From contig CAAGEK010000024.1 in the NCBI GenBank assembly GCA_900768845.1, forward strand, positions 3,001-67,000: a stretch of 64,000 nucleotides of DNA. The letters are read 5' to 3'. The translations under genes were made by a program, and so were the position numbers. Of the stretch, positions 9,771 through 19,025 are shown piece after piece; within the stretch, counting starts at the first letter, position 1, and each line of letters opens with the position of its first letter. Source of the stretch: Alphaproteobacteria bacterium (lineage in GTDB: Bacteria > Pseudomonadota > Alphaproteobacteria > CAAGCB01 > CAG-977). A model generated the notes under the pieces. It was not told the origin of the DNA. It saw only the letters and a list, made by a program, of their open reading frames with translations, and ran no database searches.

Positions 9771-10450
9771 TGGGGAGCGATTTGATTTTATACAGTACCG
9801 CGGACGGGAAAACGAAAATCAGTCTGCAGAAAACCGACGGGACGGTTTGGCTGACCCAAGCGCAAATGGCGGAACTGTTCGACTGTAAGAAACAAAACAT
9901 CAGCCTGCACATTAAAAAAATATTTGACGAAGGTGAATTGGAACAGAATTCAGTTGTCAAGCGTTACTTGACAACTGCCTCTGACGGCAAGGAGTACTCT
10001 ACACTTTTTTATTCTCTTGATATGATTTTGGCGGTCGGTATGCGGGTGCGCTCTGTTCGCGGAACGCAGTTCCGGCAATGGGCGATCGAGCATTTAAAGG
10101 AATACCTTGTCAAAGGGTTTGTTTTGGACGACGACCGCTTAAAAGGATCGGTGCGAAGCGATTATTTTGATGAATTGCTTCAACGGATTCGGGACATTCG
10201 GGCGTCCGCGTTGCGCTTTTATCAAAAAGTCAGAGATTTATTTGTCCTCGCGGTTGACTACAAGGGAAAAGAGGAAGAAACGGCGGAATTTTTTGCAATC
10301 GTTCAAAATAAATTATTATATGCCGTGGCACGGAAAACGGCGGCGGAACTGATTGTCTCCAGAGCCGATCCGTCTATGCCGAATATGAATCTGGGAAAAC
10401 TGCGCCGCGTCGGTTCCGACAAAGGCGGGAAATGGGATGTAATCAAATGA
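9770..10450 (+). CDS. RhuM-family protein (Pfam Virulence_RhuM)
   Basis: The N-terminus LILYSTADGKTKISLQKTDGTVWLTQAQMAELF and C-terminus KTAAELIVSRADPSMPNMNL are characteristic of RhuM proteins commonly embedded in type I RM loci. The ATG at 9770 overlaps the hsdM stop (TGATG). Confidence 0.8.
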   Translation: MGSDLILYSTADGKTKISLQKTDGTVWLTQAQMAELFDCKKQNISLHIKKIFDEGELEQNSVVKRYLTTASDGKEYSTLFYSLDMILAVGMRVRSVRGTQFRQWAIEHLKEYLVKGFVLDDDRLKGSVRSDYFDELLQRIRDIRASALRFYQKVRDLFVLAVDYKGKEEETAEFFAIVQNKLLYAVARKTAAELIVSRADPSMPNMNLGKLRRVGSDKGGKWDVIK

Positions 10451-11421
10451 CGGACGAGATTATAAAATATAATATTGCCGATGAATCTTTTGAAATCCGT
10501 CCCGATTATGAACAGGATACGGTTTGGATGACAAAAGCGGAAATGGCGCATCTGTTCGGGATAGACCGTTCCGGTGTTTCCCGCCACATTTCCAAAGCGT
10601 TTAAGAACAACGAACTGAACAAAAAAAGCAATGTGCAAAAAATGCACATTCCAAATTCGGACAGACCTGTTGAATTTTTTGACTTGGATGCGATTTTATA
10701 CGTCGGATATAAAACGGATTCTCAACGGGCTGTCCAATTCAGGAAATGGGCAAACCGCGTTTTAAAACAATATTTGTTAGAGGGCTTCACTCTTAATCAG
10801 AAAAAATTACAGGAGGAACAGGGGAAAAAATTCTCCGCTTTGCAGAAAGCCGTTGATTCAGTGCAAAGAGGGATAAAACGCCAAATAACGTCTTTAGACG
10901 AAGCGGACATGTTAATGCGGATTTTATCCGATTTTTCGCAGGGATTAAAGTTGTTGGACGATTTTGACAACAATGCGTTAGATGTACGCGGAAAAACGGA
11001 CAAAGAAGCCGTAAAAATCGAAGTCGCCGAATTTTTGACGGTGATTGATAAAATGAAACCGCAGTTCGGATCGGACGTGTTCGCCAATCCGAAAGACGAT
11101 GGTTTTAACAGTTCCGTCAATCAGATTTATCAAACATTCGGCGGGCAGGATTGCTATCCGACATTGGAAGAAAAAGCGGCAATGTTGCTTTACCTGATTA
11201 CCAAAAATCACAGCTTTTCGGACGGGAATAAACGCATCGCGGCACAATGTTTTTTGTATTTTCTGGAAAAGAACGGGCTTCTGTATCACCACGGACAAAC
11301 GTTGATCGACAATGCGACGTTGGCGGCGGTAACGGTTTTGATTGCTGAAAGCAGACCGGATGAAATGGAAACAATCAAACAAATGGTTGTCAGTATTTTG
11401 AACAGGAATAAAATGCAATAA
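10447..11421 (+). CDS. Fusion protein with an N-terminal RhuM-like domain and a C-terminal Fic/Doc (death-on-curing) toxin-like domain
   Basis: The start overlaps the preceding stop (ATGA). The N-terminus IIKYNIADESFEIRPDYEQDTVWMTKAEMAHLF parallels the RhuM N-domain. The C-terminus carries the Doc/Fic core motif HSFSDGNKRIAAQ (HxFx[DE]GNKR). Confidence 0.75.
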   Translation: MTDEIIKYNIADESFEIRPDYEQDTVWMTKAEMAHLFGIDRSGVSRHISKAFKNNELNKKSNVQKMHIPNSDRPVEFFDLDAILYVGYKTDSQRAVQFRKWANRVLKQYLLEGFTLNQKKLQEEQGKKFSALQKAVDSVQRGIKRQITSLDEADMLMRILSDFSQGLKLLDDFDNNALDVRGKTDKEAVKIEVAEFLTVIDKMKPQFGSDVFANPKDDGFNSSVNQIYQTFGGQDCYPTLEEKAAMLLYLITKNHSFSDGNKRIAAQCFLYFLEKNGLLYHHGQTLIDNATLAAVTVLIAESRPDEMETIKQMVVSILNRNKMQ

Positions 11422-11463
11422 AAGCGGACGGGATCAAGCGGAATTTGAAAAAGCTGAAAAAAG

Positions 11464-11500
11464 CGGGAAAACTGCGCCGCGTCGGTCTAGATAAAGGGAA
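11464..11500 (+). repeat. Duplicated 3'-end fragment of a rhuM-like gene (recombination scar)
   Basis: GGGAAAACTGCGCCGCGTCGGT at 11464-11485 is identical to 10393-10414 (end of rhuM). It translates as ...AGKLRRVGLDKGNKQ, a remnant RhuM C-terminus. Confidence 0.55.
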
Positions 11501-11632
11501 TAAACAGGTTGAAACGCAAGAAAAAACAGCCAAATTTTTCATTTTTTGATTGATTTATTTTGTGAAATAATAAAATATAGTTGCAATCAAAACGATGAAA
11601 ACAGTAAGTAGGAATTGATTGAAGGAAAGAAT

Positions 11633-12991
11633 ATGGCTGATACAGAATATTTAGATGAAGAACGCAAAAAAACATGGGAGCGTATAGAAGCCCTTGAAAA
11701 GGCTTTGCCGGCAATTCAGAAACTGGCAAACGAGGCTAAAAGCATTGCAGAAAGTAAAATAAGCACAACAGAAGCAGAAGCTAAAAAAGCTTTTGATAAT
11801 GCAGAATTACTTATGCAGAAAACGGAACAGCAAAGAATAGAAACATCTAACATTCTTAGAGAAATAGAAGAGATTTCAAAAAACTACAAAGAAAATAAGA
11901 ATAATCTTAAACATGCAATAAAAATTGCAAATGAAATTAGTGAAAAATTCTATCAGCTTGCTAAGGAAGAAACGGATATATCAGAAACTCAAAATCGGAT
12001 CAAAGTATTACAAAATGAAGTTTCTACCGAATTAGGCATAGCAAAAGCATCAAGAGAAAGTATTGTTACGATTGAAGCAGAAGTAAATTCTTCTTTAAAA
12101 AGGATAACTGATTTACAAACAACTGCAAAGGAACGAAAATCTGATATTGATGATTTATATAATGAAATTATGGGAGAAGAAAAACCAGACGGGGAACGCG
12201 AAGGAGGCTTAAAAGACAAATTGAACAAAAGCTATTTTGTAATTGAAGAAAAAATGAAAAAGTATTCAGAAAGTTTTGAAATTTTAAAAAATACATATGA
12301 CTCTGAATATGAAATTCGAAAAGAAAAATTGGATGAGTTAATGCCGGAAGCAATGGCAAAAGGATTGAGTGCTGCTTATGTTTCTCAAAAAAATGATGAA
12401 ATAAAACACAGAAAAATATCTTCTATTGTTTTTACACTAGCCATTGTTTCAATGGTACTAGTTTCATTAATTCCTGTTTATATTAATTTTTCTTTGCACA
12501 TTGAAAGTTTAAATAAAATGCAAGATTTAATAAAGAATTTTCCAAAAATGCTATCTTTAGTTATTCCTATCTATTTTCCGTTATTTTGGATAGCTTGGAC
12601 TTCGAATAAATCTATCAATCTATCAAAACGTTTAATAGAAGAATATGCTCATAAAGAAGTTCTAAGCAAAACTTATCTCGGATTAGTCAAGCAAATTCAA
12701 GATTTGCCGCAAGAAAATATGTCCCATGAATTACGGGCAAAATTACTATTTAATATGATAATAACTAGTGCAGAAAACCCTGGAAAACTAATTACAGATT
12801 ACAATAAAACTGATAATCCTTTAATGGAAATTATGGATAAAACAGCTGCAGTTGCAAATGCTGTGGATAAGTTTAAAAATATTCCAGGCATCTCGCAATT
12901 TGCAAAGTACCTAAATAAAAAAGCTGAAGAAGCTGAAAGAGAATTCTTGAAAAAAGCAACATCTGAAATTGATGATAAGGAAAGTGAATAG
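11633..12991 (+). CDS. Hypothetical membrane protein with an N-terminal coiled coil, two central transmembrane helices and a C-terminal soluble domain; candidate defence effector
   Basis: 452 aa from ATG 11633 (AAGGAAAG ribosome-binding site). The region is strongly AT-rich relative to its flanks. The coiled-coil-like region spans about 1-250. The two hydrophobic helices are ISSIVFTLAIVSMVLVSLIPVYINF and MLSLVIPIYFPLFWIAWTS. I recognise no family. Confidence 0.6.
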   Translation: MADTEYLDEERKKTWERIEALEKALPAIQKLANEAKSIAESKISTTEAEAKKAFDNAELLMQKTEQQRIETSNILREIEEISKNYKENKNNLKHAIKIANEISEKFYQLAKEETDISETQNRIKVLQNEVSTELGIAKASRESIVTIEAEVNSSLKRITDLQTTAKERKSDIDDLYNEIMGEEKPDGEREGGLKDKLNKSYFVIEEKMKKYSESFEILKNTYDSEYEIRKEKLDELMPEAMAKGLSAAYVSQKNDEIKHRKISSIVFTLAIVSMVLVSLIPVYINFSLHIESLNKMQDLIKNFPKMLSLVIPIYFPLFWIAWTSNKSINLSKRLIEEYAHKEVLSKTYLGLVKQIQDLPQENMSHELRAKLLFNMIITSAENPGKLITDYNKTDNPLMEIMDKTAAVANAVDKFKNIPGISQFAKYLNKKAEEAEREFLKKATSEIDDKESE

Positions 12992-13023
12992 AACACAATA
13001 CCAAAAATGATAAGGAGAAATAA

Positions 13024-14298
13024 ATGACAAAAACTAATCAAAAAATCCCTGAGAGGTGGAGTGTTACAAGACTTGAACTTTTAGGAGAATTTTCGAAAGG
13101 TTCAGGAATAACAAAAAATGATTTGATGCAAAACGGTTTGCCTTGTGTCAGATATGCCGAATTATATACAAAATTTGATTTTATAATTCCTTGCTGTATT
13201 TCATTTATATCCGAAGAAACAGCAAAAACGGCGAAACCGATTCGAATTGGAGATATTCTGTTCGCAGGCTCTGGAGAAACAAAGGAAGAAATAGGGAAAT
13301 GTGCTGTTTATATGAATCCTCTTATTGCTTATGCCGGAGGGGATAATATTATTTTCAGAACGACTAATGTAGTTCCTTTATATTTAAGTTTTTATCTAAA
13401 CACTTTAGGGCGGAAACAATTAAATAAACTTGGACAGGGGGATTCTATTGTTCATATTCATTCTAACGATTTGAAAAATGTTATTGTGCCTTTACCCCCA
13501 CTTGCAGAACAAGAGAAGATTGCGGAAATATTGGGGTGTTGGGACGACGGCATCGAAAAATTAAGCCGGTTGATTGAACAAAAGAAGTTGTTGAAAAAAG
13601 GGTTGATGCAACGCCTGTTGTCCGGCAAACAACGACTCTCCGGCTTCTCTGAACCATGGAGTATAAAAAAACTAGGAGAAATGGGGAAATTCGTATCAGG
13701 GGGAACGCCAGACACTGAAAAATCGAAATATTGGGACGGAAATATAATTTGGCTTACTCCCTCGGAAATAACAAAATTATCGACAAGGTTTGTGTCAGAG
13801 AGTGAAAGAAAAATAACAGACTTAGGATTAAAAAATAGTTCTGCTGTTTTGCTGCCAATCGGAAGTTTGATTATTTGTACAAGAGCAACCATTGGAGATT
13901 GTTGTATAAACATAAAAGAGGTTTCTACAAATCAAGGATTTAAAAATTTAATTCCGGAAAACAGCAATATTGATTTTCTATATTATATCATTTCATCACA
14001 TAAAACTGATTTAATCAGAAGAGCAAGTGGAAGCACTTTTCTTGAAATTTCAAAGCACGATATTGAAAAATTAAAATACTCTGTTCCCTCTCTTTCCGAA
14101 CAAAAGGCGATTGCGGACATTCTTTCCAAAGCGGACGAGGAAATCGACTTGCTGACTTCAAAATTGTCCGCGTTAAAATCGCAAAAAAAAGGCTTGATGC
14201 AAAAACTCTTAACCGGTCAAATCCGTGTAAAGGTGGATTCCGCCGCCCCTCTTTGCGAGCGAAGCGAAACAATCCAAAAAAGGCAGGTGACGGAATGA
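13024..14298 (+). CDS. hsdS: Type I restriction-modification specificity subunit (full-length, two TRDs)
   Basis: 424 aa with two variable TRDs and conserved central/C-terminal repeats (LAEQEKIAEILGCWDDGIEKL...; LSEQKAIADILSKADEEIDLL...LLTGQIRV). TRD1 is AT-rich. Confidence 0.85.
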   Translation: MTKTNQKIPERWSVTRLELLGEFSKGSGITKNDLMQNGLPCVRYAELYTKFDFIIPCCISFISEETAKTAKPIRIGDILFAGSGETKEEIGKCAVYMNPLIAYAGGDNIIFRTTNVVPLYLSFYLNTLGRKQLNKLGQGDSIVHIHSNDLKNVIVPLPPLAEQEKIAEILGCWDDGIEKLSRLIEQKKLLKKGLMQRLLSGKQRLSGFSEPWSIKKLGEMGKFVSGGTPDTEKSKYWDGNIIWLTPSEITKLSTRFVSESERKITDLGLKNSSAVLLPIGSLIICTRATIGDCCINIKEVSTNQGFKNLIPENSNIDFLYYIISSHKTDLIRRASGSTFLEISKHDIEKLKYSVPSLSEQKAIADILSKADEEIDLLTSKLSALKSQKKGLMQKLLTGQIRVKVDSAAPLCERSETIQKRQVTE

Positions 14299-14479
14299 GA
14301 AAAAAAATAAATCGCTTCGTCGCTATCGCTTCTGGCAATGACGAAAAAACGGGAAAAGAGAATAATGCAAAAAATAACCTCGGAGTGGTAACGCTACCAA
14401 GGCGCCATAGCACTTTCCGAGGACTATTGAGGGGTAAGATATCATTTTTCACGGATTTGTCAAGGGGGAATGAACGTCA

Positions 14480-15124
14480 ATGTTACAGTTATTGAAAGAA
14501 AGCTTTTCGGAACAACGTTTAAGCACTTATCAGCGAATAGCTGCAACAAAAGGGCTGTCTGAAGGAAAAGCAGTCGAATTATATAAAATCAATATCTTAA
14601 TTTGTGAAGAACTTTATGCCTTTATTGATTGTGTCGAAGTTTGTTTGCGCAATAAGATTCATAAAAAAATGACGGAGGCTTTCAAATGTCAAACATGGTA
14701 CGATTCCGTGCAATGGCTTCCCTTGCATCAGGACAGTCTGGATAACGCTAAAAAAGTTAAGTACCCTCAGGAAATACCTTCAGCTAATGATGTTATAGCC
14801 AGACTGAATTTCGGATTTTGGTGTCATATTTTTGACGCTTTTTATGAGCAACGTTTATGGATTCCGGTCTTACGTTTTCTTTTTCCCAATTATGCAGGCG
14901 CACCGTCGCGAAAGCATATATCCAACGTTTTCAACAAATTATTGAAAATAAGAAACAGAATTGCCCACTTTGAGCCTGTTATTAAAGACGAAGCGGATTT
15001 ACTCAAAAGCTATAATCAACCGGTAGAAGTTATAAATTGGATGAATCCGGAAATATATAATTGGTTTGAAACATTTAACAGATTTAAAGAACTTTACAGA
15101 CAACTGAAGTCTGGCGATTTTTAA
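14480..15124 (+). CDS. Abi_2-family (AbiD/AbiF-like) abortive-infection protein
   Basis: 214 aa. The conserved C-terminal motif LLKIRNRIAHFEPV (RNxxAH) and overall composition match Pfam Abi_2. It sits between hsdS and hsdR. Confidence 0.65.
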   Translation: MLQLLKESFSEQRLSTYQRIAATKGLSEGKAVELYKINILICEELYAFIDCVEVCLRNKIHKKMTEAFKCQTWYDSVQWLPLHQDSLDNAKKVKYPQEIPSANDVIARLNFGFWCHIFDAFYEQRLWIPVLRFLFPNYAGAPSRKHISNVFNKLLKIRNRIAHFEPVIKDEADLLKSYNQPVEVINWMNPEIYNWFETFNRFKELYRQLKSGDF

Positions 15125-15139
15125 AGAAAGGGCTGAAAA

Positions 15140-18100
15140 ATGACCGACTCTTATGTTCATCTTTTCTTTGATGAAGCGTGTCAATCGCAGTTGCCGTGCG
15201 TGGAAATGCTGGTCAATATGGGGTGGGAGTTTTTGCCTCTTGCCGATTTGGAAGCCGCACGGGAAAAAAATCCCGCCAAATCCGTTCTGAAATCCGTTTG
15301 CGAACAGGCTTTGGATAAAATCAACCGTTTTGAACATTTGGACAAGTCTTATCATTTCTCGCCCAAAAACATCGCTAACGCCGTTTTCGATTTGGAAAAT
15401 TTCCCGATGAAGGGGCTGATGACGACTTCCGCAGAAGTTTATGCCGATTTAATCGCCGGACGGGATTTAAAGGAATTTGTGCAAAATAAAGAATCTTCTT
15501 TCGATTTTAGGTTTTTCGATTTTGAGCATATCGAAAACAACCGTTTCCAAGTCGCTGTCGAAGTTCCTTTACGCGGCAAAGAAAACATTCGTCCCGACAT
15601 CGTTTTGTATGTCAACGGCATTCCCCTTGTCGTCATAGAAAACAAAAAATCCGCCGTCAGTGTGCAGGAAGCGGTCGTTCAGCTGATTGATTATCAAGCG
15701 AAGTTTCCGCGCTTTTTTTTGTTTCCTCAGTTGTTAATCGCGACGAACAAATCTGAATTTCTTTACGGAACGACAGGAACGCCTAAAAAATTTTATTCCG
15801 TATGGCAGACGGAGGATTTTGACGAAGAGGCGTGTCTGAACGCGATGACAAAAAAAATCGACGACGCCGTTTATCAAAAAATCCTTGCCGATTTGAACGG
15901 AGCGACTTTCAATCATCGCCAAAATACGGGAAAGAGGCTGATTTCAGAACAGGATCGCGGCGTTTTTGAGCTGTTGCAACCCGTCAGATTGATGCGGCTG
16001 ATTAAAAACTTTATCCTTTATGATGCGGACAAGAAAAAAATCGCCCGCCATCAGCAAATTCGCGCCATTTCCAAAACGATGGACGCCATTCGCTCTTTTG
16101 ACGGTAATTCCCGCAAAGGCGGTTTGATCTGGCATACGCAGGGATCGGGAAAAACGTTGACAATGGTGATGTTGGCAAGAGCGATCTTTTCGGACAAATC
16201 CATCAAAGATCCCCGTGTCATCGTTGTAACGGACAGAAAGGATTTGGACCGGCATATCCGCGACACGTTTAAACAGTGCAAGTTGAAACAGGGCGTTATG
16301 CAGGCGAAATCCGGCGCGGATCTGATAAAAAAACTGGAAGACCTTGAAAAGGTTGAAAATCTGGAAAATCCCAAAGGACGGGTCATTACGACTTTGGTAC
16401 ATAAGTTTGACGCGGCATTTAAAAAACGGTCGACTTTCAAAGACGAAGATCCGAATATCTTTATCTTTATTGACGAAGCGCACAGAACGCAAACGGGACA
16501 GGCCAATGCGAACATGGGAAAAATCCTGCCGAACGCGTGCGTCATCGCTTTTACCGGAACGCCCTTGATGAAAGGGGAACACGCCAGTTATCTGAAATAC
16601 GGGGGTTATATCGACAAATATACGATAGACGAAGCCTTGCACGATAAAAATATTCTGCCGTTGATGTATGAACAACGTCAAATCCGGTTTGAACAGTATG
16701 AAGGGTTGGTCAGGAAAAAGATCGATGATGACGAGGATTTTAAAAAGCTGTCCGATGAAAACAGGAAAAAATTACAGCAGGAAATCAAAGCGCGTGTTCT
16801 GTTCGAGCTTGACGACGTCGTTTCGGATATCGGCAAAGATATACAAAAGCATTTTATGAAAAACGCTTTTCTGACGGATGGAACGCCGAACGGATTTAAA
16901 GCGCAACTTGTCACGCCGTCCAAGGCTTCCGCCGTTAAATTTCAGCATTTTTTTGAAAATCAAACAGATATCGAAACCGCCGTCGTCATTTCAAACGAAG
17001 TCGGTAAAAATGAAAAGGATATTGAAGAAAAAAAAGAAGTTCGCGAGTTCCTGAAAGAAAAAACGGAAAAATCAGGAACATTGGACAAGTACGAAGAACA
17101 ATGTATCGACAGTTTTACGAACAACGATGACGGGATTCAAATTCTGATCGTTGTTGATAAACTCTTGACGGGGTTTGACGCGCCCAGAAACACTTTTTTG
17201 TATTTATTGCGCCCGTTGCAGGATCACAACCTGTTACAGGCGATTGCCCGCGTCAACCGTTTGTGCGATGAAACAAAAGAACAGAAAACGGCGGGATTTA
17301 TCATCGACTATTCCAAAAATCAGGAACATATCACGGACGCGATGCGGTTGTTTTCCAAATACAATCAGGAAGACGTCGCCGGAGCTTTAGAGGATTTGAA
17401 TAAAAAAATCGACGAACTGGACGGTTGTTATCAGGACGTGATCCGCTTGTTCAAACACTTGAAAAACTCGATCGATGAGGAAGAATATATCAGGGCTTTG
17501 GCAGATGAAGAGGCTAGAAAAGATTTTTATAAAAAACTGAACCGCTTTATTTCCGTATTTTCGGAAGCCGTGCTTTTCCGCGATTTTGAAACGACTTTCG
17601 GAAATGAAAAATCGGCTTTGTATAAGAAGCAATCCTTAAAGTTTTTGAACATCAAAAAATCCGCTGTTTGCCGTTATGCCGATGTGGTCGATTTGAGCGT
17701 CTACCGGCAAAAAATATACCGTGTTTTACAATCTGCCGTCAGTGTTGAGGAAATTAAAGAAGTTACTCAAAGCGTCGATATTATGAACCTGAACGGCATG
17801 AAAAAAGATCTGGAAAAGTTTTCTCCGAAATCCGCCGCGGAAGCCATGCTCGCGAACATGACGAGAAAGACTTCCGTTCTGATGGAAACCGATCCCGAAT
17901 TTTATAAGTCTTTTTATGAGAAAATTCAGGAGTTGATTGAAAAGCTGAACAAGGCCGACGCCGATTACGAAGAATTGTTTTCGGATGCGCAAGTCTTACA
18001 GCAGGAATTGATCAACCATGAATGCGAAAAATCTTCCGCAGACAGAACCGCGGATTTGTTCTACCGCAATTTGAGCCCCTTGTTTGAAAAAATCAAAGAT

Positions 18101-18322
18101 CGAAACTTACAGGAGGAAATCGGGAAACTGACGGATTTCTTCAAAAAGAATTTGATTGTCGAATGGTCGGTCAATGATGAAACGCAACGTATGCTCAAAA
18201 CGAAAATCGACGATTATCTGTATGATACTTACGGCGCGATTTTGAACGATACTTCGTGGGATATTGCCGAAGCTTTGATGAATTTGTCTTTGCATAACAA
18301 AGAGCTGTTCGATGTCCGATAA
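15140..18322 (+). CDS. hsdR: Type I restriction endonuclease R subunit (helicase/nuclease)
   Basis: 1060 aa. N-terminal nuclease region (VVIENKK), SF2 helicase motifs I (HTQGSGKTLTM) and II (FIFIDEAHRTQTG), and a C-terminal HsdR helical domain. Confidence 0.9.
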   Translation: MTDSYVHLFFDEACQSQLPCVEMLVNMGWEFLPLADLEAAREKNPAKSVLKSVCEQALDKINRFEHLDKSYHFSPKNIANAVFDLENFPMKGLMTTSAEVYADLIAGRDLKEFVQNKESSFDFRFFDFEHIENNRFQVAVEVPLRGKENIRPDIVLYVNGIPLVVIENKKSAVSVQEAVVQLIDYQAKFPRFFLFPQLLIATNKSEFLYGTTGTPKKFYSVWQTEDFDEEACLNAMTKKIDDAVYQKILADLNGATFNHRQNTGKRLISEQDRGVFELLQPVRLMRLIKNFILYDADKKKIARHQQIRAISKTMDAIRSFDGNSRKGGLIWHTQGSGKTLTMVMLARAIFSDKSIKDPRVIVVTDRKDLDRHIRDTFKQCKLKQGVMQAKSGADLIKKLEDLEKVENLENPKGRVITTLVHKFDAAFKKRSTFKDEDPNIFIFIDEAHRTQTGQANANMGKILPNACVIAFTGTPLMKGEHASYLKYGGYIDKYTIDEALHDKNILPLMYEQRQIRFEQYEGLVRKKIDDDEDFKKLSDENRKKLQQEIKARVLFELDDVVSDIGKDIQKHFMKNAFLTDGTPNGFKAQLVTPSKASAVKFQHFFENQTDIETAVVISNEVGKNEKDIEEKKEVREFLKEKTEKSGTLDKYEEQCIDSFTNNDDGIQILIVVDKLLTGFDAPRNTFLYLLRPLQDHNLLQAIARVNRLCDETKEQKTAGFIIDYSKNQEHITDAMRLFSKYNQEDVAGALEDLNKKIDELDGCYQDVIRLFKHLKNSIDEEEYIRALADEEARKDFYKKLNRFISVFSEAVLFRDFETTFGNEKSALYKKQSLKFLNIKKSAVCRYADVVDLSVYRQKIYRVLQSAVSVEEIKEVTQSVDIMNLNGMKKDLEKFSPKSAAEAMLANMTRKTSVLMETDPEFYKSFYEKIQELIEKLNKADADYEELFSDAQVLQQELINHECEKSSADRTADLFYRNLSPLFEKIKDRNLQEEIGKLTDFFKKNLIVEWSVNDETQRMLKTKIDDYLYDTYGAILNDTSWDIAEALMNLSLHNKELFDVR

Positions 18323-19025
18323 ACAAATATCCGTAGGGCAAAAAATTTATAATTATAACTTGTTGCTGTCTGAACGGAAAACGGCAACGATTTATATTTC
18401 AAACGATGCAAAGATTACTGTAAAAGCTCCGCTCAATGTCAGCATCGGCCGTATAGAAACATTTATCCGGCAAAAAGCAAAGTGGATTGCCGAGCAATTG
18501 GAAGAAGTGGAAAAATACAGGCAAATTTCCGATCGGAACAAATATTTGTCCGGTTCCGCTTTGCTTTATCTGGGGCGACAATACAAAGTCATTGTCAATC
18601 CCGCCCTTGAGCAGGAAAAGGTTCAACTGTTAAAAAACCGGATCGTTATTTTTACGAAACAGAACGTTCAAAACGAAATTCATAACGGATCGCTCGTTAA
18701 GCTTTGGTACGAAAAACGGCAAAAGCGCGTTTTTCGGGAGCGTTTCGCTTTGATTTCCGAGCAATTCCCCGATTTTGAAAATCCGAAACTGGCCGTGATT
18801 AAAATGAAAAACAGATGGGGATGCTATCGTATCAACGGCACGGTCGTTTTAAATCCGGAGCTGATCAAAGCGTCCAAACAATGTATCGACTATGTGCTTT
18901 ATCACGAGTTTTGCCACCATTTTTTCAGAAAACATGATGCGGACTTTTATAAAATGCTTGAAGAAAAAATGCCTGATTGGAAAAAGGTGAAAGAAAAACT
19001 TGAACTGCGATTTACATCAAATTAG
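18312..19025 (+). CDS. YgjP-like DUF45 / M48-family metallopeptidase-like protein
   Basis: 237 aa with HEFCHH (HExxH) near the C-terminus. It overlaps the hsdR stop. This family is frequently the last gene of type I RM operons. Confidence 0.8.
   Translation: MSDKQISVGQKIYNYNLLLSERKTATIYISNDAKITVKAPLNVSIGRIETFIRQKAKWIAEQLEEVEKYRQISDRNKYLSGSALLYLGRQYKVIVNPALEQEKVQLLKNRIVIFTKQNVQNEIHNGSLVKLWYEKRQKRVFRERFALISEQFPDFENPKLAVIKMKNRWGCYRINGTVVLNPELIKASKQCIDYVLYHEFCHHFFRKHDADFYKMLEEKMPDWKKVKEKLELRFTSN

Follow-up and report, generated by a model that had tools for sequence, protein, structure and literature searches.

A mobile family of predicted membrane-anchored coiled-coil proteins, tentatively assigned to defence, with one clade carried as swappable cargo in type I restriction–modification operons

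The 64,000-nt window analysed here (the whole stretch of contig CAAGEK010000024.1 from an alphaproteobacterium, with positions counted from its first letter) contains a complete type I restriction–modification (RM) operon, in which a gene for a predicted membrane protein of 452 amino acids, referred to as gene X and its product as protein X, is inserted between hsdM and hsdS in the same orientation. A first-pass annotation, made from the letters alone, had described the open reading frame (ORF) at 11633-12991 as encoding a long N-terminal coiled coil with two hydrophobic helices and had placed it at the variable hsdM/hsdS junction; the ORF list, an AlphaFold2 model and the analyses of periodicity and hydropathy agree with the description, and the flanking genes confirm the position. 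The features on which the argument depends are the following, with residues numbered in protein X and TM denoting a transmembrane helix.

8265..9770, + strand: hsdM, upstream edge of the cargo slot (N6_Mtase E 2e-98, HsdM_N)
11622..11626, + strand: Shine-Dalgarno-like AAGGA, 6 nt 5' of the ATG at 11633 (read off the sequence)
11633..12991, + strand: gene X, predicted membrane-anchored coiled-coil protein (ORF list; alternative TTG start at 11615)
11672..12139, + strand: arm A, residues 14-169, predicted canonical heptad coiled coil of variable sequence (periodicity, lengths, model confidence)
12173..12208, + strand: conserved turn or β-hairpin between arms A and B, residues 181-192 (invariant G181 and G192; modelled strands 181-183 and 189-191)
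12221..12340, + strand: arm B, residues 197-236, helical segment whose length varies by 11s (family lengths)
12338..12412, + strand: pre-membrane motif LLPxALTAGLSxAY, residues 236-260 (invariant P238, G244, L245, A248 and E256; conservation 0.65)
12416..12598, + strand: predicted membrane hairpin, TM1 at residues 262-285, loop 286-302, proline-rich TM2 303-322 (hydropathy, invariant columns, positive-inside counts)
12599..12832, + strand: predicted cytoplasmic juxtamembrane module, residues 323-400, the most conserved part (motifs NLSKRLIEEYxHKEVLSKT...ENPGKLIxDYNKxDxP)
13024..14298, + strand: hsdS, 32 nt 3' of gene X (Methylase_S E 2e-45)

Translation of gene X probably begins at the ATG at 11633, because the AAGGA element lies 6 nt upstream of it and the N-termini of its closest homologues read MADTEYLDEERKK or MTDTEYLDEERKK. 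Sigma-70-like promoter sites for the gene show no excess, with 9 found compared to 7.8 ± 3.1 in shuffled sequence. The G+C content (GC) of the gene is 0.303, that of its third codon positions (GC3) 0.20, compared to 0.479 for the whole window, 0.478 for hsdM, 0.43 for hsdR, 0.369 for hsdS and 0.357 for the abortive-infection (Abi)-like gene further downstream. The first-pass statement that GC is far below that of the flanking genes is therefore correct, but it describes a property of the family rather than of the island: in 79 of 81 loci the GC of gene X falls short of that of the 8-kb flanks, with a mean difference of 9.4 points, and in Curvibacter a GC of 0.338 compares to 0.577 in the flanks. 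The unusual base composition is also the one point that speaks for a chance open frame in AT-rich DNA, an explanation already refuted and of practically no remaining probability, given the hundreds of full-length homologues, a ratio of nonsynonymous to synonymous substitution rates (dN/dS) of 0.11 relative to the orthologues of loci L004 and L081 (82-83% identical), and 28 columns that are invariant in a 48-sequence family alignment. Split by region in the same two comparisons, dN/dS amounts to 0.15-0.21 for the stalk and 0.02-0.05 for the C-terminal half. Judged by these substitution patterns, gene X is a functional and conserved gene.

The absence of a recognisable conserved family, as initially reported, holds for the curated libraries, but a large uncharacterised family exists. 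A word-indexed search returned at least 634 relatives of protein X, nearly all of them 440-510 residues long and full length, and an exhaustive profile search of 1.84 billion representatives gave 346 clusters (50% identity) at E≤1e-30 and 1,460 at E≤1e-10; a scan of one genome per species contributed 184. The architecture is uniform throughout the family, which occurs in Alpha-, Beta-, Gamma- and Deltaproteobacteria, Bacteroidota, Verrucomicrobiota, Planctomycetota, Melainabacteria and others, and whose members are named only 'hypothetical protein' in the source records. No paper on the family was found in the literature. The Pfam scan of protein X returned no family at E≤0.01; NCBIfam returned SMC_prok_B alone, at 16.9 bits compared to a cut-off of 567, and PADLOC-DB v2.0.0 returned only JetC and LmuB, in the arm regions and at E 4.5e-6 to 0.035. 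The heptad-rich arms do align with the coiled coils of SMC, JetC (Wadjet) and MukB proteins, but only the arms, with neither ATPase head nor hinge, and kinship with SMC or JetC was rejected, the matches being compositional. Two further candidates were dismissed likewise: HmpF (PF28019), precomputed on homologue P0058 only and flagged 'weak', as coiled-coil noise, and Mit_KHE1 (PF10173), matched by homologue P0020 at E 1.2e-6 but not by protein X or the other eight scanned homologues, as compositional.

Structure databases were equally silent. Searches of the PDB by sequence, with protein X alone and with a profile of its C-terminal module, gave nothing beyond transmembrane noise from rhodopsin at E 0.09; comparison of PDB folds gave no relative of the C-terminal module, the fold search of BFVD gave nothing at E≤0.001, and the fold of the ClyA-family α-pore-forming toxins was not recovered for protein X by fold comparison. 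The PHROG family phrog_34659, of unknown function, aligns co-linearly with residues 149-404 through its profile positions 151-388 of 433 (E 1.2e-6) and is probably a true distant relative from prophage-like DNA. With no curated model, solved fold or PADLOC candidate matching, the family appears to be new; defence cargo nested in RM operons, as such, is already known. A phage origin of gene X found no backing in a tblastn search, which gave no match in 50,697 phage records, and 7 relatives turned up in the 2.9 million contigs of IMG/VR, most of them located at the end of a contig. Phages essentially lack the family.

The AlphaFold2 model, built on the 48-sequence alignment with a mean predicted local distance difference test score (pLDDT) of 75.6, is wholly helical except for the short β-hairpin. 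A single helix extends over residues 5-180, with pLDDT >90 for residues 60-170, and is followed by helices at 193-236, 238-291 and 296-356. Averaged over the family, hydrophobicity along residues 14-169 oscillates with one sharp period of 3.50 residues (power 136 compared to 2.9 at 3.67), which identifies this segment as a predicted canonical heptad coiled coil staying in phase over 155 residues. The mean majority-residue frequency in arm A is 0.37. Among 245 family members, the length of arm A (W14-K169) is mostly 141, 148, 155, 162 or 169 residues, in steps of 7, and that of arm B (L197-L236) is 39, 50, 61 or 72 residues in 229 of them, in steps of 11. Changes of coiled-coil length in whole heptads or hendecads are expected when helical phase must be kept, and that the indels in both arms preserve phase suggests that the N-terminal tip and the membrane module need to be kept in helical register with each other. 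The lengths of the two arms do not co-vary (rho 0.03), and antiparallel folding of arm A on arm B was rejected for this reason. Since the phase-preserving indels are independent in the two arms, the stalk is probably a parallel homo-oligomer in which arm A of one subunit pairs with arm A of another, and arm B with arm B.

On average, 3.4 K+R residues precede TM1, 1.5 fall in the loop of 17 residues and 4.0 follow TM2, and hydropathy shows no hydrophobic segment at the N-terminus; we infer from this an N-in/C-in topology, with the stalk of ~230 residues and the C-terminal module in the cytoplasm and the short loop outside. TM2 has the invariant residues P304, P312, Y314, P316 and W319. Conservation is lowest in the stalk (0.33-0.37) and highest right after TM2 (0.78 for residues 323-356 and 0.67 for 357-400). 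Shorter proteins encoded on plasmids match just residues ~226-432, among them those at 5581-6474 of L092 (Acinetobacter, E. coli and Klebsiella plasmids) and 5362-6651 of L093 (Leptospira plasmids), whose N-termini are different or shorter and which align with protein X at ~226-387 or 244-372. Because these two match only the two-TM and juxtamembrane region, the conserved membrane module is found outside the full-length architecture too.

All relatives of protein X that are 38-83% identical to it and have a readable context share the slot found in the window. They come from ten loci, namely L001, L003, L004, L081 (P0003), L082 (P0011), L085 (P0024), L101 (P0006), L102 (P0015), L103 (P0023) and L104 (P0038), and in each of them, as in the window, gene X is nested on the same strand in a type I RM operon having hsdM, hsdS and hsdR. 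The common order is a facultative half-size hsdS, then hsdM, followed by RhuM, Fic, T5orf172 or small ORFs, or by nothing, then gene X, hsdS, a second cargo, hsdR and a facultative YgjP-like gene. The stop of gene X overlaps the start of hsdS by 14, 4, 11 and 11 nt in L085, L102, L103 and L104, respectively, and the two genes are separated by 1-10 nt in L082 and L081 and by 32 nt in the window. In a neighbour-joining tree without bootstrap support values, the embedded loci form one clade, within which the non-embedded L002, L045 and L107 (Tokpelaia) are nested. Four other neighbourhoods with RM or RhuM genes fall in four separate places of the tree: in L005, gene X precedes a 1,069-aa enzyme of the Eco57I/MmeI type, and it follows HsdS in L041, an HsdM-HsdS fusion in L054 and RhuM in L008.

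Comparison of individual operons shows gene X to be exchangeable. The L102 operon is orthologous to that of the window, with DNA identities of 86.5% over half-hsdS and hsdM, 91% over the Abi gene and 85% over hsdR and the YgjP-like gene, but its gene X matches at the DNA level across the first ~320 nt only (78%), and the encoded protein, identical to protein X in its first 52 residues, is a different allele in the rest (47% overall). L004 and L081 present the reverse situation: their DNA matches gene X of the window end to end at 80-82%, while their Hsd proteins have diverged, with identities of 64-68% for HsdM, 35-38% for HsdS and 38-40% for HsdR. An orthologous backbone carrying a different allele, together with a retained allele in diverged operons, marks gene X as swappable cargo of the hsdM-hsdS slot that is exchanged between operons by recombination.

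The same comparisons bear on the idea that, in the embedded clade, protein X belongs to the type I RM enzyme as an accessory subunit, which would tether or regulate HsdM2S or HsdR2M2S at the inner membrane, for instance at sites of DNA entry or in restriction alleviation, rather than act as an effector in its own right. The fixed position between hsdM and hsdS, and the overlap with the hsdS start in four of the loci, would suit such a role, as would the fact that the body of gene X and hsdS are swapped as one low-GC central block between otherwise orthologous operons; the long cytoplasmic coiled coil could conceivably dock on the coiled-coil spacer of HsdS. Yet ~90% of the family retains the same conserved modules with no RM gene nearby, the slot also holds unrelated cargo (RhuM, Fic, T5orf172, small ORFs), and L002, L045 and L107 live outside RM operons despite their place within the embedded clade. 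We consider the subunit explanation improbable on balance.

Across the family, no partner gene of gene X is conserved, as judged from all-against-all clustering of five ORFs on each side in 81 loci, where the commonest neighbour cluster, HsdM/HsdS, is present in 7. The family-wide AT-richness relative to the flanks, combined with this lack of a partner, fits a mobile stand-alone gene. When the Pfam families among 289 proteins at positions ±1 and ±2 were counted as matching neighbour proteins, the recurring ones were Methylase_S, N6_Mtase and RhuM (5 each), UvrD (4), AAA_19, DUF3800 and AAA_21 (3 each), SMC_N, AAA_15 and AAA_23 (2-3 each), and NERD, HipA_C, T5orf172, DUF5710, HIRAN and integrase (2 each), along with helix-turn-helix regulators. 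These recurring neighbours are of defence or mobilome types only, with ribonucleotide reductase (three times) as the one exception. Among individual loci, that of Pseudomonas lies in a HicAB/DUF4062/RelA-SpoT/YhfG island and that of Chromobacterium in an element with integrase, insertion sequence (IS), AlpA and Ogr-Delta genes, and the shorter X-like proteins of the Leptospira plasmids adjoin TIGR02391, MazEF and PIN genes.

Mobility of this kind could mean that protein X serves the elements that carry it, as a membrane toxin, an addiction module or an entry- or surface-exclusion protein that stabilises the island or blocks rival elements rather than phages. A copy on a Vibrio plasmid near partition and transfer genes, another on the integrase/IS/AlpA element, the relaxase remnant in the island of the window, the relaxase and integrase that flank the relative L102, and the low GC can all be cited for a mobile-element function. 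An antitoxin-like partner is however not conserved, most copies are chromosomal and away from transfer genes, and the family is rare on plasmids, the Vibrio copy being the single full-length match in 72,556 records. We regard a mobile-element function as quite unlikely, more so than the subunit explanation.

Defence is the reading of protein X best supported by the collected evidence, albeit an unproven one: protein X would be an inner-membrane protein of an uncharacterised mobile single-gene family which, as cargo of the RM slot, contributes as an accessory to protection from phage or other foreign DNA by acting at the membrane. We favour it tentatively, with a confidence approaching but not reaching an even balance. 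The argument is one of guilt by embedding, since location inside type I RM, BREX or DISARM loci is a predictor of anti-phage function (Payne et al. 2024, bioRxiv 10.1101/2024.01.29.577857), and the window and the ten embedded loci all have gene X in such a location; TgvAB of Vibrio VPI-2 is a validated case of defence from within a type I RM operon. Like the candidates of Payne et al., TgvAB and PrrC, gene X is enclosed in a complete operon, between hsdM and hsdS and co-oriented with both, beside RhuM and Fic cargo that matches the PADLOC candidates PDC-S05 and PDC-S23 strongly. Pfam, NCBIfam and PADLOC gave no assignment of protein X to a mobilome, housekeeping or known defence family. Protein X differs from these systems as a membrane protein that lacks nuclease and NTPase domains, in having no PDC, HEC, GmrSD, PrrC or other PADLOC match beyond coiled-coil noise, and in that most of its relatives are not embedded. 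From PrrC and RloC in particular it is set apart by the lack of ABC-type NTPase and anticodon-nuclease domains (Pfam, NCBIfam, PADLOC) and by an all-helical model with two TM helices.

The membrane-disrupting abortive-infection effector proposed in the first-pass annotation is as yet an unproven mechanism. Speculatively, the conserved hairpin and C-terminal module could constitute an effector or assembly unit, causing ion leak, depolarisation or entry exclusion, while the fast-evolving stalk would sense the trigger or transmit it to the membrane module; in RM operons, protein X might back up restriction, possibly once restriction has been disabled, as do PrrC and TgvAB. A bolder version of the defence reading holds protein X to be a single-protein immune device of a new class, a guard of the RM system having a membrane effector and unrelated to SLATT, Zorya and known Abi proteins. 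A conserved motif at the N-terminal end of a phase-locked coiled-coil 'ruler', itself a homo-oligomer, would then recognise a phage product or sense that the neighbouring RM enzyme has been inactivated, and the stalk would pass the signal to the proline-rich two-TM hairpin and juxtamembrane module, so that a leak in the inner membrane is opened or assembled. We think this version unlikely, although somewhat less so than the subunit explanation.

The likeness to SLATT proteins drawn on in the first-pass annotation was not borne out. Both have two adjacent TM helices followed by a cytoplasmic helix and both occur in conflict-type contexts, but the TM hairpin of protein X is central, not N-terminal. 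No SLATT profile (SLATT_1-5, SLATT_fungal) matches protein X at E≤0.01 or nine homologues at E≤1, SLATT proteins rank 17, 44 and 47 in the BFVD search with E 0.2-0.56 and TM-scores of 0.19-0.34, which is not significant, and SMODS, SLOG, TIR and CBASS families are absent from the 25 commonest Pfam families of the 289 neighbours. The tail of ZorA in Zorya and chemoreceptor-like stalks resemble protein X in general architecture, with a long register-preserving coiled coil mounted on a membrane module. Protein X differs in its single two-TM hairpin, it matches no ZorA, MotA or MCP model, and it has neither a ZorB-like nor any other conserved partner.

Several points weigh against a role in defence. 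Neither sequence nor fold comparison produced a relative of known function, and no catalytic or pore motif is recognisable in protein X; the conserved residues 388-420 have low model confidence. None of the 145 PADLOC PDC candidates matches protein X, a comparison that did not extend to DefenseFinder or to catalogues later than 2023. The enrichment of defence genes near gene X is an estimate from Pfam counts. It had been asked whether homologues recur beside RM, Abi or toxin–antitoxin genes, and here the answer is divided: ten loci share the same RM slot, but RM or RhuM genes lie within 10 kb in only ~7 of 80 species-representative loci, and ~90% of such loci are without RM genes. Contexts that are purely housekeeping occur in Tokpelaia, Curvibacter, a GH43/esterase cluster and, three times, beside ribonucleotide reductase. 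The association of gene X with defence is real but partial.

One alternative is that protein X is a non-defence accessory of the membrane, engaged for instance in envelope stress, scaffolding or membrane organisation, that has spread horizontally and of which one lineage became trapped by chance in an RM cargo slot prone to recombination. It is opposed by the patchy distribution and near-universal low GC, by one deep clade kept in the RM slot in addition to four independent adjacencies to RM or RhuM, by recurring neighbour families of defence or mobilome types, and by the overlap of gene X with hsdS at several loci. We judge the non-defence alternative to be unlikely, but among those competing with defence it is the one to be taken most seriously, and the genomic comparisons support the defence context of gene X as non-accidental.

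Were the defence reading correct, a single-gene family with a novel fold and a membrane site of action, found in many phyla, would join the bacterial immune repertoire, one more back-up system would be known from within type I RM operons, and a tractable model would be at hand for how a register-sensitive coiled coil relays a cytoplasmic cue to a membrane hairpin of minimal size. Were it incorrect, the stable residence of one deep clade in RM operons would become a warning case for predictions from guilt by embedding. Gene X is best viewed as a credible, testable candidate of unusual architecture, one of many unvalidated embedded genes, with a family-wide context that is only partly defence-like.

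The remaining genes and features of the RM operon in the window are these.

7651-8268: half-size hsdS ORF of 205 aa (one Methylase_S region), immediately 5' of hsdM and overlapping it
9767-10450: RhuM ORF, C-terminally truncated (Pfam profile positions 1-155 of 252)
10432..11421, + strand: RhuM-N + Fic/DOC gene, co-cargo in the slot of gene X (PADLOC candidate PDC-S23, E 2e-111)
11425..11514, + strand: non-coding scar 5' of gene X, the leftover 3' end of a Fic-HTH_24 gene and including one copy of a direct repeat (DNA matches to L102 and L085)
14480..15124, + strand: Abi_2/PD-T4-5-like gene in the second cargo slot, between hsdS and hsdR (PD-T4-5 1e-9; Abi_2 below cut-off)
15140-18322, + strand: hsdR (Pfam scan)
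18312-19025, + strand: YgjP-like (SprT/WLM-type) metallopeptidase gene, overlapping the end of hsdR and ending the operon (Pfam scan)

The neighbour of gene X initially called a Doc-type toxin does have a Fic/DOC domain, but as part of a fusion with the N-terminal region of RhuM. The preceding RhuM gene is probably a truncated remnant: it overlaps the fusion gene, which begins again with the RhuM N-terminal region, and a repeat at 9842-9881 and 10519-10558 (85%) reflects this duplication. The scar has 88% identity to L102 7883-7955 and 82.5% identity to L085 8946-9025, and its part at 11425-11497 is what remains of the 3' end of the Fic-HTH_24 gene present in those two loci. A 50-nt direct repeat, D1, flanks the RhuM-N + Fic gene at 10393-10442 and 11465-11514, with the first 22 nt identical and 76% identity overall. 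D1 encodes '...GKLRRVG.DKG...', its downstream copy being non-coding and matching the 3' end of the Fic-HTH_24 genes of L102 and L085, and it looks like a scar of cassette insertion or a recombination site. The Fic-HTH_24 scar and the repeat bracketing the fusion gene confirm traffic of cassettes through the slot.

Recombination is evident in hsdS as well. Its second half (13657-14121) aligns at 82.6% identity with the first target-recognition region in the hsdS of L085 (11391-11855), and many loci have matches to its conserved regions 13495-13660 and 14098-14236, which indicates that target-recognition domains (TRDs) shuffle between positions and between operons. The hsdM-hsdS junction stands out as a site of cassette exchange, marked by scars, direct repeats, breakpoints within genes and TRD shuffling. 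The half-hsdS upstream could be a spare specificity half, and equivalents of 183-188 aa in L102, L103 and L104 make it a conserved feature of this type of operon.

The Abi_2 gene announced downstream scored 22.7 bits in Pfam, below the cut-off of 25.6, though it has the PD-T4-5 match and a cluster mate bearing the name 'Abi family protein'. The second slot (14299-15139) holds this Abi_2/PD-T4-5-like, HEPN-flavoured gene in the window and in L102, and in other relatives it holds unrelated proteins of unknown function with 315, 246 and 185 aa, a HAD protein or a Vpar_1526 protein. Just 5' of the Abi-like gene, 64 intergenic nt (14369-14432) are 97% identical to L004 12942-13005, which lies just 5' of hsdR there; conservation of this segment is far above that of the surrounding genes, and it may have a regulatory function or mark a boundary of recombination for the second slot.

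No tRNA or Rfam elements were found at the borders of the RM island, and no integrase follows the YgjP-like gene in the window. In L102, HTH_17 and relaxase genes border the operon at one end and an integrase at the other. Since the non-coding DNA upstream of the RM operon in the window (7243-7561) is 80-83% identical to parts of the L102 relaxase region (2317-2520 and 3036-3139), the island may be a decayed integrative mobilisable element. The YgjP-like gene, with no match in PADLOC, also occurs at the operon end in L003, L004, L081, L085, L102, L103 and L104 and seems to be an integral part of this type I RM operon family.

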